Source of the DNA: a virus
Taxonomy: Duplodnaviria > Heunggongvirae > Uroviricota > Caudoviricetes
IMG/VR virus record: IMGVR_UViG_2609459845_000009
Length of the DNA: 17,583 bases
Strand: one strand, 5' to 3'
The position numbers were made by a program, and so were the translations under genes. The first letter of the stretch is position 1; every line of letters starts with the position of its first letter. Positions 948 through 5,456 of this stretch are shown one piece after another. The notes beneath the pieces are model-generated. The model saw nothing but the letters and a program-made list of their open reading frames with translations. It was not told the DNA's origin and did not search any database.

Positions 948-1243
948 TTTGGTACGCTCAAAAATAATGGTTTGGTACACATCTGGTACACAATATCACA
1001 TGGACAACAGCGCACAGTAAACAACTATATTTGACGTTCGTAGACATACTCAGGTTAAAAAAGGGTTGTTTTTCGAGTTATAACAGACAGTTAATTAACT
1101 ACAGTGGACAATGCTAGACAATGACAGGCACAGATAAACAACCTACCTTCCTCTTTCACGATTACGCGCAATACCCCTGAGAACCGCCATGAACAAGGGT
1201 TTCATGATTTGTGATTTTAGTTTGGTACGCAATTTGGTACACA
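948..1243. repeat. Five direct copies of TTGGTAC(A/G)C in two clusters (950-992 and 1223-1243) in the region upstream of int
   Basis: Read directly: TTTGGTACGC 948-957, TTTGGTACAC 971-980, CTGGTACACA 983-992, TTTGGTACGC 1221-1230, TTTGGTACAC 1234-1243, all same orientation. Confidence 0.5.
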
Positions 1244-1252
1244 ACACTATTT

Positions 1253-1651
1253 TCACTTCAGCGGGTAGTCATCAAACTCACCAGTCCGCGCGTCATTGAT
1301 GATGTACGTCACCACCCCCTTCACTACGACTCGTTCCTCACAATCGTCGTCAGTTATCCATGTCTTTTTATCAGCGTGGTCCAGTTCTTCCAGGTGCACC
1401 TTTGGCAGCAGCCTGAGACGCAACAGCCGTATCTGGTCATTCAGATGACAAATCACCAGGCTTCCGTCTACCGGAGTCAGCGATGTGTCCATGACCAGCA
1501 GAGCCCCTCTCTTGATTCCTTCCCGCCATGATGTAGCAGCGTAACGGATGAAGAATGTCGCCGCTGGTTTTCGTATCAACTCCTTGTCGAGTGAGATCGC
1601 ATCCTCGTGGTAATCAGCAGCAGGGCTGGGAAACTGTGACATGGCAACCAT
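1253..1651 (-). CDS. UmuD'-like protein (LexA/UmuD S24 peptidase fold; pre-processed HumD-like form)
   Basis: 132-aa ORF; N-terminus MVAMSQFPSPAADY matches the FPSPAADY segment that follows the Cys24-Gly25 cleavage site of E. coli UmuD (recalled). Ser of the GDSM motif is retained (ATSW), but the catalytic Lys position appears to be Arg/Leu. GAGGTGA Shine-Dalgarno upstream. Confidence 0.7.
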   Translation of the reverse strand: MVAMSQFPSPAADYHEDAISLDKELIRKPAATFFIRYAATSWREGIKRGALLVMDTSLTPVDGSLVICHLNDQIRLLRLRLLPKVHLEELDHADKKTWITDDDCEERVVVKGVVTYIINDARTGEFDDYPLK

Positions 1652-1666
1652 AACTCACCTCATTGG

Positions 1667-1686
1667 CACTGTATGTACATACAGTA
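1667..1686. promoter_or_regulatory. LexA (SOS) box CTGT-N8-ACAG upstream of the UmuD'-like gene
   Basis: CACTGTATGTACATACAGTA, an 18-bp perfect palindrome with CTGTATGTACATACAG at 1669-1684, about 18 nt upstream of the start codon at 1651. Confidence 0.7.
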
Positions 1687-1697
1687 CCAATGCATGG

Positions 1698-1740
1698 ATT
1701 TTGATCGTTGCAACCGATCGATTTGAAGATTTTGATCGTT
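1698..1740. repeat. Two 13-bp direct repeats GATTTTGATCGTT (1698-1710, 1728-1740) carrying three GATC sites in the divergent promoter region
   Basis: Read directly; GATC at 1703-1706, 1716-1719, 1734-1737; repeat spacing 30 bp. Confidence 0.45.
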
Positions 1741-1830
1741 ATTTCCCATAACCAAATAGTGAGCAATTTTGGGACATTTATTATAAATTTAAATTGTCTT
1801 TAAATATAAATATCCAATCGGTAAATCATC

Positions 1831-3117
1831 GTGAAAAATAATTCCGCGCTGTTTGTTGGTTCTTTTTTTGAAAGTGACCAAAGCTCAAAAGTAAACCTGG
1901 CATTATCTTATGATGGAGAACGATTCGAAAAAATAAAGGCTCAATTCCTTTGGGCTATTGGTGGAACTGGAGAAGTTTTAGGGAGAGACCCATCAATTAT
2001 TTATCACAACGGTTGGTGGTTAATAGCCGTATCAGGATATACAGAAAACGTTTATGACGTCGATTGCTGGCGCTCACGTGATTTAACCGTGTGGGAACTG
2101 GTACGAATTAAGCTTGGCGATACGCCAGTCTGTGGGAAACGATTACCGGGTTCAGATCTGGTGACCACTGACGTGTGGGCTCCTGAATGGTTTGTTGATG
2201 ACGAAAATCTGTTCCTGATAGTCAGCCTGCGTTATTACAACGATCAGACTGACAGTAAAGGTGTAAATGTCAAAAGTTTTAAAACATTCTATTCTGTCTG
2301 TTCTGATGTTGAGAGACTGGAGTTTTACGATCCGGTTGCGGTAAATATCGAACCAAAAAACATGATTGATTCTGTTTTTTCCAGAATATTCCAGACGTAT
2401 TACCTGACAATAAAAGATGAAATCACCAAAAAAATTGAGGTGTATTGTTCAAATTGTTTCTCAGGACAGTTCACGAAATTATCAGTAATTCCGTTTACTC
2501 AGGCGGCGGAAGGCCCGGCGCTGGTTTATTTGCCGGACGGCACGATCAGAATCTATGCGGATTTTTTCGACACAAAAAAATGGACTTATTTTGTAGACAC
2601 GAAAGACTTCGTGACGTTCACGCCAGAGCGCCCCGTTTTGTTTGACGGCAGAATTAAGCGCGGGACTATTACAAATGTGCTGAACTGGCGCGATAGTGAA
2701 ACCGCATTGCAGCAACTGTCGGCGCTGTTCTGTGCAAACTCCGGGGATTTACAGCCAGGGAAAATCCACAAGCTCATTGATGTAGCGGGAACGAGCAATA
2801 TCAACGCTACTGATTTAATCTGGTGGCCTGAAACTGGACATTGTTATTTCACCGAGGGGTTATCCGGTAACGTGACAATCAATGCGCTGCCAACTGTTTA
2901 CCCGGACGGGAGTTCGTTTTATCTGATGGTCCGAAGCGCAACGCCGGGAGCTGGTGATCTGACGCTTAAACAGGCTGTCGGCGACCTGTACCACCCGGCT
3001 AATGGCATGGCGATATTTGATGCTGATTTGGTAGTGGCGGCTGGCGGGAACGCCGCATCACGTCTGTTTAGAATGGTGTGCTTTGATGGCCAGTTGTGGG
3101 TTGAGGGGGTTTTCTGA
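1831..3117 (+). CDS. Hypothetical 428-aa protein; N-terminal part resembles a GH43-type five-bladed beta-propeller glycoside hydrolase, C-terminal about 140 aa unassigned
   Basis: Long ORF in an AT-rich island; GTG start (first in-frame ATG is far inside). Motifs in GH43-like order: RDPSIIYHNGWWLIAVSGY, DVWAPEW, AEGPALVYLPDG. No signal peptide. Assignment is motif-level only. Confidence 0.5.
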   Translation: MKNNSALFVGSFFESDQSSKVNLALSYDGERFEKIKAQFLWAIGGTGEVLGRDPSIIYHNGWWLIAVSGYTENVYDVDCWRSRDLTVWELVRIKLGDTPVCGKRLPGSDLVTTDVWAPEWFVDDENLFLIVSLRYYNDQTDSKGVNVKSFKTFYSVCSDVERLEFYDPVAVNIEPKNMIDSVFSRIFQTYYLTIKDEITKKIEVYCSNCFSGQFTKLSVIPFTQAAEGPALVYLPDGTIRIYADFFDTKKWTYFVDTKDFVTFTPERPVLFDGRIKRGTITNVLNWRDSETALQQLSALFCANSGDLQPGKIHKLIDVAGTSNINATDLIWWPETGHCYFTEGLSGNVTINALPTVYPDGSSFYLMVRSATPGAGDLTLKQAVGDLYHPANGMAIFDADLVVAAGGNAASRLFRMVCFDGQLWVEGVF

Positions 3118-3151
3118 TATAATTGTGGCTCAATGAAAATTGGGCCACATA

Positions 3152-4213
3152 ATGAACAATAAAATATTTTCCGTCCAGTATCTTCGTGGAATAGCAGCGC
3201 TACTTGTGGTGCTGTACCATTTTTCTTTTTTTACTCCGCGCTGGTTTGCTAATTTATTTGCAAATGGCATGGTGGGCGTTGATATTTTTTTCATTATCTC
3301 TGGATTTATTATTTATTGGTCAACAATAAATCCTGAGGAATGCAGACCAACGGTATTTATTGTTAAACGATTCGCCAGAATATACCCGCTATTTTTTGTT
3401 GTGTTACTGGTTTCGTTGTTATTGCAACCTGCGCCTGCCACACAATTATCCAGGGGTTTTCTGGTTCTGCACAACGATTACACACTACCCGCTCCGGCGT
3501 TTGGATTTAATCTGCTACCGCCCGCGTGGACATTGACTTATGAAATATCGTTCTACGCTATTTTCTGTATGTGCGCTGCAATAACGACCCGGTATCGAGG
3601 TTCATTGTGTATCGCGCTGCTGATTGCAATCCCGGCAGTGCTACAGGTTGCGTTTAATGGAGGGTTGTCGTTTAACAGCACAGTCACCGCTATCCCTCCT
3701 GCTGACTCGCCGTTTTATGGTCTAATCAGGCTGGCAGGCTCAACGATGTTTTATGAGTTTGCGTTTGGGATTATGTCTGGAATGATATTTGAAAGGTTTA
3801 AATTAATTCTTCCTAACTTAACTGCTATTACTATAGCAATATTCGCATCGGCTTTATTTTTCTATTTTTTCTTCACATTCTCAGACCATACCAGCGGTAT
3901 AGAAGGAATGTTCTTTTTTGCTGCAATATTTTTTGTGGGCGTTTTGATGCTGGATAAATCAAAGGCGGGAGAGATAAAAGCATTATCAATTCTTGGCGAC
4001 CTGACATATAGCATTTATCTCTGTCATTGGCTGGTAATGCAGATGGTACAGAAATTTATTCCGATTGGGGAGTATAAGCACTGGGGCGTCCTTGTCCCCT
4101 GCATGCTTGTTGCTTCTCTGATGATGGCATTCGCAGCTAACCGGATAATTGAAAAACCGTTTATCCGTCTGGCCCGTTCGGCGCTGAAACGCCAGGAGAT
4201 TACGACGCGGTAG
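3152..4213 (+). CDS. Acyltransferase family 3 integral membrane protein (OafA/Oac-like O-acetyltransferase)
   Basis: N-terminus MNNKIFSVQYLRGIAALLVVLYHF is the acyltransferase-3 signature; many hydrophobic segments; 34 nt downstream of the 428-aa gene, same strand. ATG 3152 preferred over the track's TTG at 3140. Confidence 0.8.
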   Translation: MNNKIFSVQYLRGIAALLVVLYHFSFFTPRWFANLFANGMVGVDIFFIISGFIIYWSTINPEECRPTVFIVKRFARIYPLFFVVLLVSLLLQPAPATQLSRGFLVLHNDYTLPAPAFGFNLLPPAWTLTYEISFYAIFCMCAAITTRYRGSLCIALLIAIPAVLQVAFNGGLSFNSTVTAIPPADSPFYGLIRLAGSTMFYEFAFGIMSGMIFERFKLILPNLTAITIAIFASALFFYFFFTFSDHTSGIEGMFFFAAIFFVGVLMLDKSKAGEIKALSILGDLTYSIYLCHWLVMQMVQKFIPIGEYKHWGVLVPCMLVASLMMAFAANRIIEKPFIRLARSALKRQEITTR

Positions 4214-4664
4214 CAGGACGTGGCGGCCATTCAAGGCTGTCACTTAATATCGCTGCTTCATCATTAAACTTCATTTTCTTCAAGGCATCGATATGAGCAA
4301 GCCACTCTTTAAAGGTCGCCTTCTCTTCATCGGTGATGATCTCCAGAATGAGCTTAGAAGGCCAGTGTTCGCTGCTTATATATGCGTTAGCCGCAGAGAT
4401 TAACGCATCTCTCTTTGACTCGGCCTGTGCCAGTTTAAGCGCGAACAGTTCTTCTTTAGTTGGCTCGGGAATTTTTTCCCACGCAGGCATGCCGTCTGGC
4501 CCTGCAACCCTTCGCATGCCGTCTTTAACTGTTGGGTAAAATTCGGCGAAAACACCCATATCAACCGGCACAGCATCACTGTATTCGTCCGTCTTTAACA
4601 GAGAGCTTTCCTTGAAAACAAAAGCGTTGCTTTTGGCACTATATAAAAAATCTGAATCAGACAT
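4200..4664 (-). CDS. tfa: Tail fibre assembly protein (Tfa family)
   Basis: 154 aa; position directly downstream of a tail-fibre C-terminal fragment with TAATG stop/start overlap; C-terminal region (DEEKATFKEWLAHIDALKKM...DSLEWPPRP) resembles Tfa chaperones from memory. Confidence 0.7.
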   Translation of the reverse strand: MSDSDFLYSAKSNAFVFKESSLLKTDEYSDAVPVDMGVFAEFYPTVKDGMRRVAGPDGMPAWEKIPEPTKEELFALKLAQAESKRDALISAANAYISSEHWPSKLILEIITDEEKATFKEWLAHIDALKKMKFNDEAAILSDSLEWPPRPATAS

Positions 4665-5099
4665 TACGCTCTCCCGATAGCAATCCAGTTAAAAACTGTT
4701 GGCTGCGCAGTAAAGTTGTGGTCGGACGAACTCCAGGTTGCAGAACGAACATTAAAGCTCCCTGCGTTAACCTTTTCGGCACCATACACGGTTAAGAGTT
4801 GATAGATACCGCCGGAGGCTGTCCATCCAGAGACATGGCCTTCTACTGCAAATACCTGGTATGAGCTCATCGCCACACCCATATTCACATTATAAAATCC
4901 GTTACTGTCCGTTGTACCTACATCCATCTGGATGATCATATTGCCAGGAAGGCGAATAACCACACCAGACCCGGTTGTTGTATAGGTAAAGGATGACATA
5001 TCCGGAACTTGCCCGGTAGCCGGTATAAATCACACACTCTCCGACATACACATCATCCGGATGGGCAAACAGCTCTTGTTTGTCTGTGAGCTCTGCCAT
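4664..5099 (-). pseudogene. stf: Side tail fibre C-terminal remnant, truncated at 5' end and split by a frameshift (65-aa + 111-aa ORFs)
   Basis: Two overlapping minus-strand ORFs in different frames (5099-4902 and 4999-4664), ending at the tfa start; no upstream tail-fibre body or any other structural genes. Confidence 0.5.
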
Positions 5100-5456
5100 T
5101 GTTGGCTCCGTTTATCCGTTAAAAGGGATATCAGTTAAGTTATCCCGTGCAGGGTATAAGCCATTGTCGAGACCACTCATTGAATGGCCTCTGCAATAAC
5201 CGATGTCTTTCCATCAGTCCGCCACAACAAAGAATCTTTTTTGCCATAAGGCAGGAGGTTCATCTTTCAGTGGCTGCCAGTGTTATTTCCCCACTTACTG
5301 GCTTGGGTTGTTTTGTGGTACTGCCGTAACTGGTTGCCAAGAATAAATTCCGGTTTCATTATCAAGCCCACCCGTAGATGGGCTTTGTAATGGATAGCCG
5401 TTGCTCAGTTCTCGTAATGCTTTGATTTTTCCGATAACGCAGTTTTGCGTTTGCCA

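Follow-up and report, generated by a model that had tools for sequence, protein, structure and literature searches.

A humD-type gene without umuC beside the attP of a lambdoid element: an ordinary member of a known phage family

The gene studied here lies at the attP-proximal end of the window, by which we mean the whole stretch of 17,583 nucleotides that was analysed, and it belongs with near certainty to the known HumD family, of which it is an ordinary representative. By analogy with P1 HumD, we consider it probable that the gene is a LexA-controlled HumD moron of a temperate enterobacterial phage which would supply ready UmuD' to the UmuC of the host. The feature was already known and already annotated, and as a discovery it carries little weight: from P1 HumD onwards, temperate enterobacterial phages have been known to carry pre-activated UmuD' genes under LexA control and without umuC, and these form a curated equivalog. 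Two by-products of the analysis are of use. The catalytic dyad is usually lost in ready-made UmuD'-like proteins (Lys replaced by Arg, Cys, Val, Leu or Phe), and the family has a conserved disordered tail which, judged by its residues, may be a look-alike of the SSB docking peptide.

The gene, its protein and its family

The following features define the gene and its translation start.

1253..1651, minus strand: humD-type gene for a 132-aa ready-made UmuD'-like protein, stop codon included (open reading frame and translation)
1655..1661, minus strand: Shine-Dalgarno sequence GAGGTGA, 3 nt from the ATG at 1651 (read in the sequence)

The ATG at 1651 opens 132 codons (MVAMSQFPSPAADY...) and gives the N-terminus MVAMSQFPSPAADYHED. 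In the alignment this first ATG is the conserved start among relatives, and a GAGGTGA-N3/N8-ATG layout recurs in the Phytobacter and P1 homologues. The N-terminus falls five residues ahead of the UmuD cleavage point; six residues precede FPSP, where UmuD' has one, so that HumD starts practically where UmuD is cut, between Cys24 and Gly25. The alignment thus confirmed the sequence-only reading, in which the protein was said to start almost at the site of RecA-mediated UmuD cleavage (FPSPAADY). Comparison of the window gene with its Phytobacter homologue gave a dN/dS of 0.08 at a dS of approximately 1.0, indicating that humD is under strong purifying selection. The exact protein sequence was found on 41 contigs in the protein collection and is labelled 'S24 family peptidase [Escherichia coli]' by NCBI and 'HumD family translesion DNA polymerase' by UniRef; by the latter label the gene was already catalogued under the name that had been proposed for it. 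A PADLOC scan of HumD and its two neighbours returned no match to a defence system.

Homology to UmuD extends well beyond the short N-terminal motif. Residues 26-139 of E. coli UmuD matched window positions 1633-1286 (35% identity, E 4.5e-16), and the alignment spans the full length, which answers the question raised with the original proposal of whether the likeness would go further than that motif. A profile match against the PDB built from an alignment that itself includes UmuD is circular, and a single-sequence phmmer search was relied on instead; this recovered UmuD and UmuD' at approximately 3e-15 over residues 5-118, with LexA much weaker. The protein scored 171.1 bits against the NCBIfam equivalog NF051876 ('HumD family translesion DNA polymerase', curated cut-off 120), with residues 7-131 covering profile positions 3-128 of 129. 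The generic NCBIfam UmuD model gave 78.5 bits, below its cut-off of 110, Pfam Peptidase_S24 gave 27.7 bits, and PHROG 811 ('UmuD-like protein') was matched at 2e-40.

Searches of phage records by tblastn gave 78 records that match window HumD. The homologues of P1, P7, D6, phiKO2, N15, HK140 and HK639 share 49-57% identity with it over 94-99% of the length, with approximately 55% for P1 HumD, N15 gp26, phiKO2 gp23 and HK140 gp28. P1, P7 and D6 HumD, phiKO2 gp23, N15 gp26, HK140 gp28 and HK639 gp28 all start MGFPSPA, that is, Met followed by the N-terminus of UmuD'. The nearest cluster representatives in a collection of 5.8 billion proteins came from Phytobacter (76-89% identity), followed by E. 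coli (69%) and Salmonella (65%), and intact ORFs of 128-132 aa were found in Escherichia, Phytobacter, Kluyvera and Salmonella alike. Among 1.84 billion cluster representatives, a profile search picked up 3,936 relatives, 11 of them with E <= 1e-30; a scan of genome contigs with the single protein, which required exact peptide words, found two distant or partial relatives only.

An AlphaFold2 model based on 22 relatives had a mean pLDDT of 76, with 87-91 in the core. The best Foldseek matches were UmuD on the RecA filament (8gmt) and UmuD' (1ay9, 1umu), with target-normalised TM scores of 0.78-0.82, and the C-terminal domains of LexA and lambda CI ranked behind them. The description of the protein as a ready-made UmuD' like P1 HumD was therefore borne out by the equivalog score, by the identity of approximately 55% to P1 and P7 HumD and by the best fold match.

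No umuC accompanies the gene. When E. coli UmuC (MG1655 record) was searched by tblastn against all six frames of the window the best E was 2.5, with no UmuC-like sequence, in agreement with the earlier statement that the window holds no umuC-like polymerase gene. The only ORFs of more than 300 aa in the window encode a weakly GH43-like protein and an Acyl_transf_3 acyltransferase, and at the homologous loci that were examined for a umuC beside the gene there was none. The prophages that carry an identical humD are flanked by E. coli dacD-sbmC at 98.9% identity, which identifies the host as E. coli; E. coli K-12 carries umuDC.

The LexA box, the attachment site and the surrounding element

The region upstream of the gene contains a predicted LexA box and a tentative promoter element.

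1667..1686, unstranded: LexA (SOS) box TACTGTATGTACATACAGTG, with a perfect 18-bp palindrome at 1668-1685 and a 17/20 match to consensus
1708..1713, minus strand: tentative -35 hexamer TTGCAA, picked by eye, with no convincing -10 after it

The predicted box sits 15 bp 5' of the humD start codon. It is the single occurrence of CTGT-N8-ACAG in the window and the sole match to the 20-mer LexA consensus at three or fewer mismatches, and none of 200 dinucleotide-preserving shuffles gave any such match. The E. coli umuDC operator TACTGTATATAAAAACAGTA (MG1655 record) occupies a similar position before umuD and agrees with the window box at 15 of 20 positions. A CTG-N10-CAG box was present upstream in all 12 homologous loci extracted, each matching 16-18 of the 20 consensus positions. 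It starts 28-64 nt before the start codon in the window, in near-identical E. coli copies and in P1, N15, HK639, phiKO2 and Phytobacter, and approximately 280 nt upstream in HK140, E. coli P0013 and Salmonella P0014, where it lies ahead of a 79-aa ORF preceding humD. Since the flanks of these homologues are otherwise unrelated, it is the box itself that is conserved. The copy in the P1 record carries the label 'LexA binding site in the regulatory region of lxr and humD', a lexA binding site is annotated in the phiKO2 record, and a survey of P1 plasmids classes humD as a LexA-regulated SOS gene (PMC9603915). The near-consensus SOS box noticed just upstream in the sequence-only reading is thus upheld as a predicted site, unique in the window and with counterparts before all homologues examined.

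A consensus scan of positions 900-2000 for sigma-70 promoters and terminators found nothing. The hexamer TTGCAA can be put forward only tentatively, on its sequence, as the -35 of humD; its GCAACG part recurs in the Phytobacter homologue, in which TATACT follows after an 18-nt spacer and overlaps the box.

Downstream of the gene the DNA belongs to a known type of integration module.

1253..1318, minus strand: last 22 humD codons (...INDARTGEFDDYPLK), part of a shared int-attP module (comparison with HK140)
1154..1166, unstranded: attP crossover core TTTCACGATTACG, 87 nt 3' of the humD stop (window compared with the attR of E. coli prophages, locus L009, and with the 5' end of MG1655 sbcB)

Positions 1-1318 of the window are 98.7% identical to the HK140 segment that runs from int through attP to the 3' end of humD, and are close to other phages with a '2851-type' attachment site. 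In the nucleotide alignment with HK140 humD, identity is approximately 50-60% and then changes to near identity from about 1318 through the stop codon, attP and int. This switch indicates that the last 22 codons travel with the integrase module. The C-terminal variant ...DDYPLK (versus ...DDCPVM) is linked to the 2851/HK140-type integrase module. The same attachment site also occurs in phages that have kept little of the gene: mEp234, Sf101 and the Stx phages 2851 and 1717 carry an unannotated 3' humD fragment only (query residues 50-132). The humD copy of BTP1 (locus L028, 2501-2858) is probably disrupted, since its alignment falls into two pieces and the record has no gene annotated there. 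The 3' fragments suggest that the gene is often lost while its 3' end survives in the attP arm.

The 13-bp crossover core falls within the first codons of sbcB in the comparison with MG1655. The attP (1121-1180, plus strand) bears a surrogate 5' end of sbcB, with the stub MTGTDKQPTFLFHDY... compared with MMNDGKQQSTFLFHDY... in MG1655. Integration would rebuild sbcB (exonuclease I) with a phage-derived promoter and N-terminus, and the native sbcB start would be left facing the 3' end of humD at attR. The idea that integration changes the C-terminus of HumD was dropped; the core lies 87 nt beyond the stop codon and the protein is therefore unaltered. RNA folding of the spacer between humD and attP gave no structure beyond that of shuffles (z 0.18) and no sign of a terminator or of regulated int read-through. 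Window positions 1137-5024 match, at 99.3% identity or more, the right ends of E. coli prophages in which this humD is the last gene, followed by dacD-sbmC-yeeA. The window, where an intact attP links humD to int, therefore shows the element in excised or circular form, as a phage genome or as a tandem array.

By homology the remainder of the window comprises lambdoid early, replication, nin, Q and lysis genes, and no terminase, head or tail genes were found in it. At approximately 5024-5110 a tail-fibre gene has been reduced to a C-terminal ORF of 111 aa (4664-4999) and fused to DNA that lies downstream of KilA-N and the lysis genes. The same junction recurs in three IMG/VR proviruses (contigs of 21.9, 19.2 and 8.0 kb), which suggests a recurrent lambdoid element of approximately 22 kb without structural genes that keeps int, the immunity region, O/P, Q and lysis. 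Between humD and the tail-fibre assembly gene lies a divergent two-gene cassette (1831-3117 and 3140-4213, both plus strand). The product of 1831-3117 (428 aa) has weak GH43/GH32 similarity, below Pfam cut-offs, and that of 3140-4213 is an Acyl_transf_3 protein of 357 aa (PHROG 'O-acetyltransferase', 1e-56); on these similarities the cassette probably represents surface-polysaccharide (O-antigen) modification morons. The 1831-4213 module was absent from the complete E. coli genomes in the collection.

A phage dinI lies next to the humD homologue, in divergent orientation, in HK140 (locus L001, 5642-6233) and phiKO2 (locus L003, 1175-1878). The two genes have an annotated LexA site between them in phiKO2, and the HK140 box falls in the corresponding dinI-gp27/humD interval. 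The dinI and humD pair looks like a small SOS/RecA-directed module. Neither dinI nor the upstream 79-aa ORF is present in the window.

Active site and C-terminal tail

The catalytic Lys is missing, as had been proposed: in every alignment Lys97 of UmuD stands opposite Leu77 of window HumD. On the companion claim, that the Ser is retained, the alignments disagree. Pairwise phmmer places Ser41 opposite Ser60 of UmuD, while multiple and profile alignments place Thr40 there; the two residues are adjacent, and the register of the nucleophile is ambiguous because of a one-residue deletion nearby in HumD proteins. The equivalent of Cys24-Gly25 is Ser5-Gln6, with only five residues upstream, and with Ser-Gln in the place of Cys-Gly window HumD has no cleavage site.

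To place the missing Lys in context, approximately 30 ready-made representatives (start MGFPSPA, 115-135 aa) were aligned. Lys in the K97 column proved to be a minority, found in P1-like clusters; the other representatives have Arg (most of them), Cys, Val, Leu or Phe, and Ser in the S60 column was rarer still than Lys in the K97 column. Loss of the dyad is therefore usual across ready-made UmuD'-like proteins and no peculiarity of the window gene. Most ready-made lineages have lost it, as usually happens once self-cutting is no longer needed. Such a pattern is what one would expect of a peptidase domain that serves purely as a scaffold, and it argues for selection on binding rather than on catalysis.

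HumD-type proteins run 10-13 residues past the end of UmuD, with the pattern ...INDARxGEFDDxPxx. Window HumD carries this family tail (INDARTGEFDDYPLK) with an end of the HK140-type variant. In the AlphaFold2 model the tail has low pLDDT and no secondary structure, and in the alignment G-E-F-D-D is invariant in the close family. The two peptides below are HumD-tail peptides.

HumD-tail peptide: ARTGEFDDYPLK
HumD-tail peptide: ARSGEFDDCPVM

The tail motif is retained in roughly half of the ready-made representatives, some of which end EFDDTPF, EFDDIAPF or FEFHDNLPF. The C-terminus of E. coli SSB is MDFDDDIPF, in which DDDIPF is the partner-docking motif (PMC5872125). Window HumD ends PLK and has no terminal hydrophobic residue. 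Our literature search found no mention of a resemblance between the HumD tail and the SSB tip. A conserved disordered tail is usually a binding peptide, and this one, being absent from UmuD', hints at an additional or different partner. We also note a coincidence: the product of sbcB, the gene that serves as integration target of the element, is one of the classical partners of the SSB C-terminus, while the HumD tail GEFDDxP[VF][MIL] resembles the SSB docking peptide DFDDDIPF.

Proposed role and comparison with known systems

In the role that we favour, that of a ready UmuD' for the host polymerase, host LexA would repress humD in the lysogen. Upon DNA damage, RecA-stimulated cleavage of LexA would derepress humD along with the umuDC of the host. 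HumD would then be made in its active form and dimerise, and the dimer would bind host UmuC to give a Pol V-like activity at once, skipping the slow RecA-mediated step from UmuD to UmuD'. During the SOS response and prophage induction, lesions in host and phage DNA would then be bypassed more often, and mutagenesis would rise as well. Within this scheme, the analogy with P1 makes UmuC perhaps a reasonably likely partner. According to a note in the P1 record, humD 'functionally complements E. coli UmuD'', and HumD is described as an already activated, shorter UmuD (PMC7092418). P1 HumD is the one member of the family for which replacement of UmuD' in SOS mutagenesis and binding to UmuC and RecA filaments are known. 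Counted against Pol V activation were the limited identities of window HumD (only 35% to UmuD' and 55% to P1 HumD) a consensus scan in which no recognisable sigma-70 promoter went with the LexA box, and the conserved tail, foreign to UmuD', with its hint at another or an extra partner. In addition, P1 HumD was reportedly poorly expressed in the 1999 work of McLenigan et al. and is said to have complemented well only from a high-copy plasmid, so that its natural role may not be the activation of Pol V.

The main alternative is that the chief target of HumD is not UmuC but the RecA nucleoprotein filament, whose groove it would occupy as a non-cleavable look-alike; it might then tune the cleavage of LexA, UmuD or a 434-type CI, or restrain recombination, and so time prophage induction. 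UmuD binds the filament via a domain that is conserved in HumD, and the best structural match, 8gmt, is itself the UmuD-RecA filament. The pairing of the homologue in phiKO2 and HK140 with dinI, another RecA-filament binder, with a LexA box between them, points the same way, as does the fact that the window encodes a LexA-family CI repressor whose cleavage is RecA-dependent. The lost dyad would fit a pure binder, but it is equally expected in a substitute for UmuD'. Moreover, the window is without dinI, and the prototype, P1 HumD, is recorded as complementing UmuD', which needs UmuC. We regard an action chiefly on RecA, with the proposed consequences for prophage timing, as unlikely. The tail raises a further idea, compatible with supply of UmuD' to UmuC, in which GEFDDxP-hydrophobic would be a docking peptide like the SSB C-terminus and give HumD an extra function: it could recruit SSB partners or compete for them, or dock on SSB-coated DNA. 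The extension past the end of UmuD, its disorder, the invariance of G-E-F-D-D in the close family and the likeness of some endings to that of SSB speak for it. The likeness, however, extends over just four to five residues of a short acidic stretch and may be fortuitous, and the window protein ends PLK rather than in a hydrophobic residue. That an invariant acidic tail [DE]-F-D-D-x-P-hydrophobic mimics the SSB docking peptide DFDDDIPF is, on sequence, an outside chance, and that such a peptide gives HumD an added function, whether by engaging SSB partners or by docking on SSB-coated DNA, seems to us slightly more doubtful again. If true, a dyad-less UmuD' dimer would be plugged into the SSB network, or would rival SSB for chi, ExoI, RecQ and PriA during SOS and prophage induction. 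HumD proteins would then do more than replace UmuD', and SSB-type docking would change views on how they work.

We give very little credence to the view that humD is a functionless, decaying remnant, a truncated umuD with a degenerated active site. The catalytic Lys is indeed lost, many 2851-type phages retain 3' fragments only, the BTP1 copy is probably disrupted and no consensus promoter was found. A dN/dS of 0.08 at a dS of about 1 nevertheless excludes it, and the intact ORFs in Escherichia, Phytobacter, Kluyvera and Salmonella, the conserved SOS box and Shine-Dalgarno sequence and the invariant tail all stand against decay. Least credible of all is that the protein still cleaves itself, as an S24 peptidase or repressor in the manner of LexA, UmuD or UmuDAb. 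The Pfam Peptidase_S24 score of 27.7 bits and a Ser or Thr near the position of the nucleophile might suggest this, but replacement of the general-base Lys by Leu77 excludes it; there is also no Ala/Cys-Gly site, and no N-terminal domain to be removed or to bind DNA.

Among known systems the closest are the HumD proteins of P1, P7 and D6, which belong to the same curated equivalog and share 55-57% identity over 95% of the length. Like the window protein, P1 HumD starts at the UmuD cleavage point, has a LexA box approximately 35 nt upstream and no umuC, and bears a tail of the same family. It differs in that P1 keeps both Ser and Lys of the dyad, where window HumD has Thr40/Ser41 and Leu77, and in that it starts MGFPSP and ends DDCPVI, whereas the window protein starts MVAMSQFPSP and ends DDYPLK. 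P1 is a plasmid prophage with humD by lxr and phd-doc, while the window humD lies by the attP of an integrating lambdoid element.

HK140 gp28, HK639 gp28, N15 gp26 and phiKO2 gp23 are likewise orphan 'UmuD-like proteins' with a LexA box, encoded after tail-fibre genes and adjoining attP/int or partition genes. HK140 shares with the window, almost letter for letter, the final 22 codons and the attP-int stretch that follows them. Over the rest of the protein, in contrast, these homologues share only 47-53% identity with window HumD, and HK140, N15 and phiKO2 keep the Lys and HK639 has Met where the window protein has Leu77. The HK140 gene further differs in following a 79-aa ORF, with a box approximately 280 nt upstream that is shared with the divergent dinI; both of these genes are missing in the window.

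E. coli UmuD' (1UMU, 1AY9, 1I4V, 8GMT) has the same fold and domain boundaries and LexA-type control, but arises by RecA-mediated self-cleavage of a 139-aa precursor whose gene shares an operon with umuC. Window HumD is instead translated short, without the dyad Lys and without umuC, and carries 10-13 extra C-terminal residues. Salmonella phage vB_SosS_Oslo gp31-gp32 occupies the same moron slot between tail fibre and integrase; there, however, umuC directly follows umuD, and the UmuD-like protein matches query residues 7-121 only and is without the HumD tail. Unlike umuDC-type operons (Pol V, MucAB, RumAB), the window humD has attP and then int downstream and no Y-family polymerase gene. Finally, unlike the active S24 peptidases LexA, UmuD and lambda CI, window HumD has neither the Lys general base nor an Ala-Gly or Cys-Gly scissile bond.
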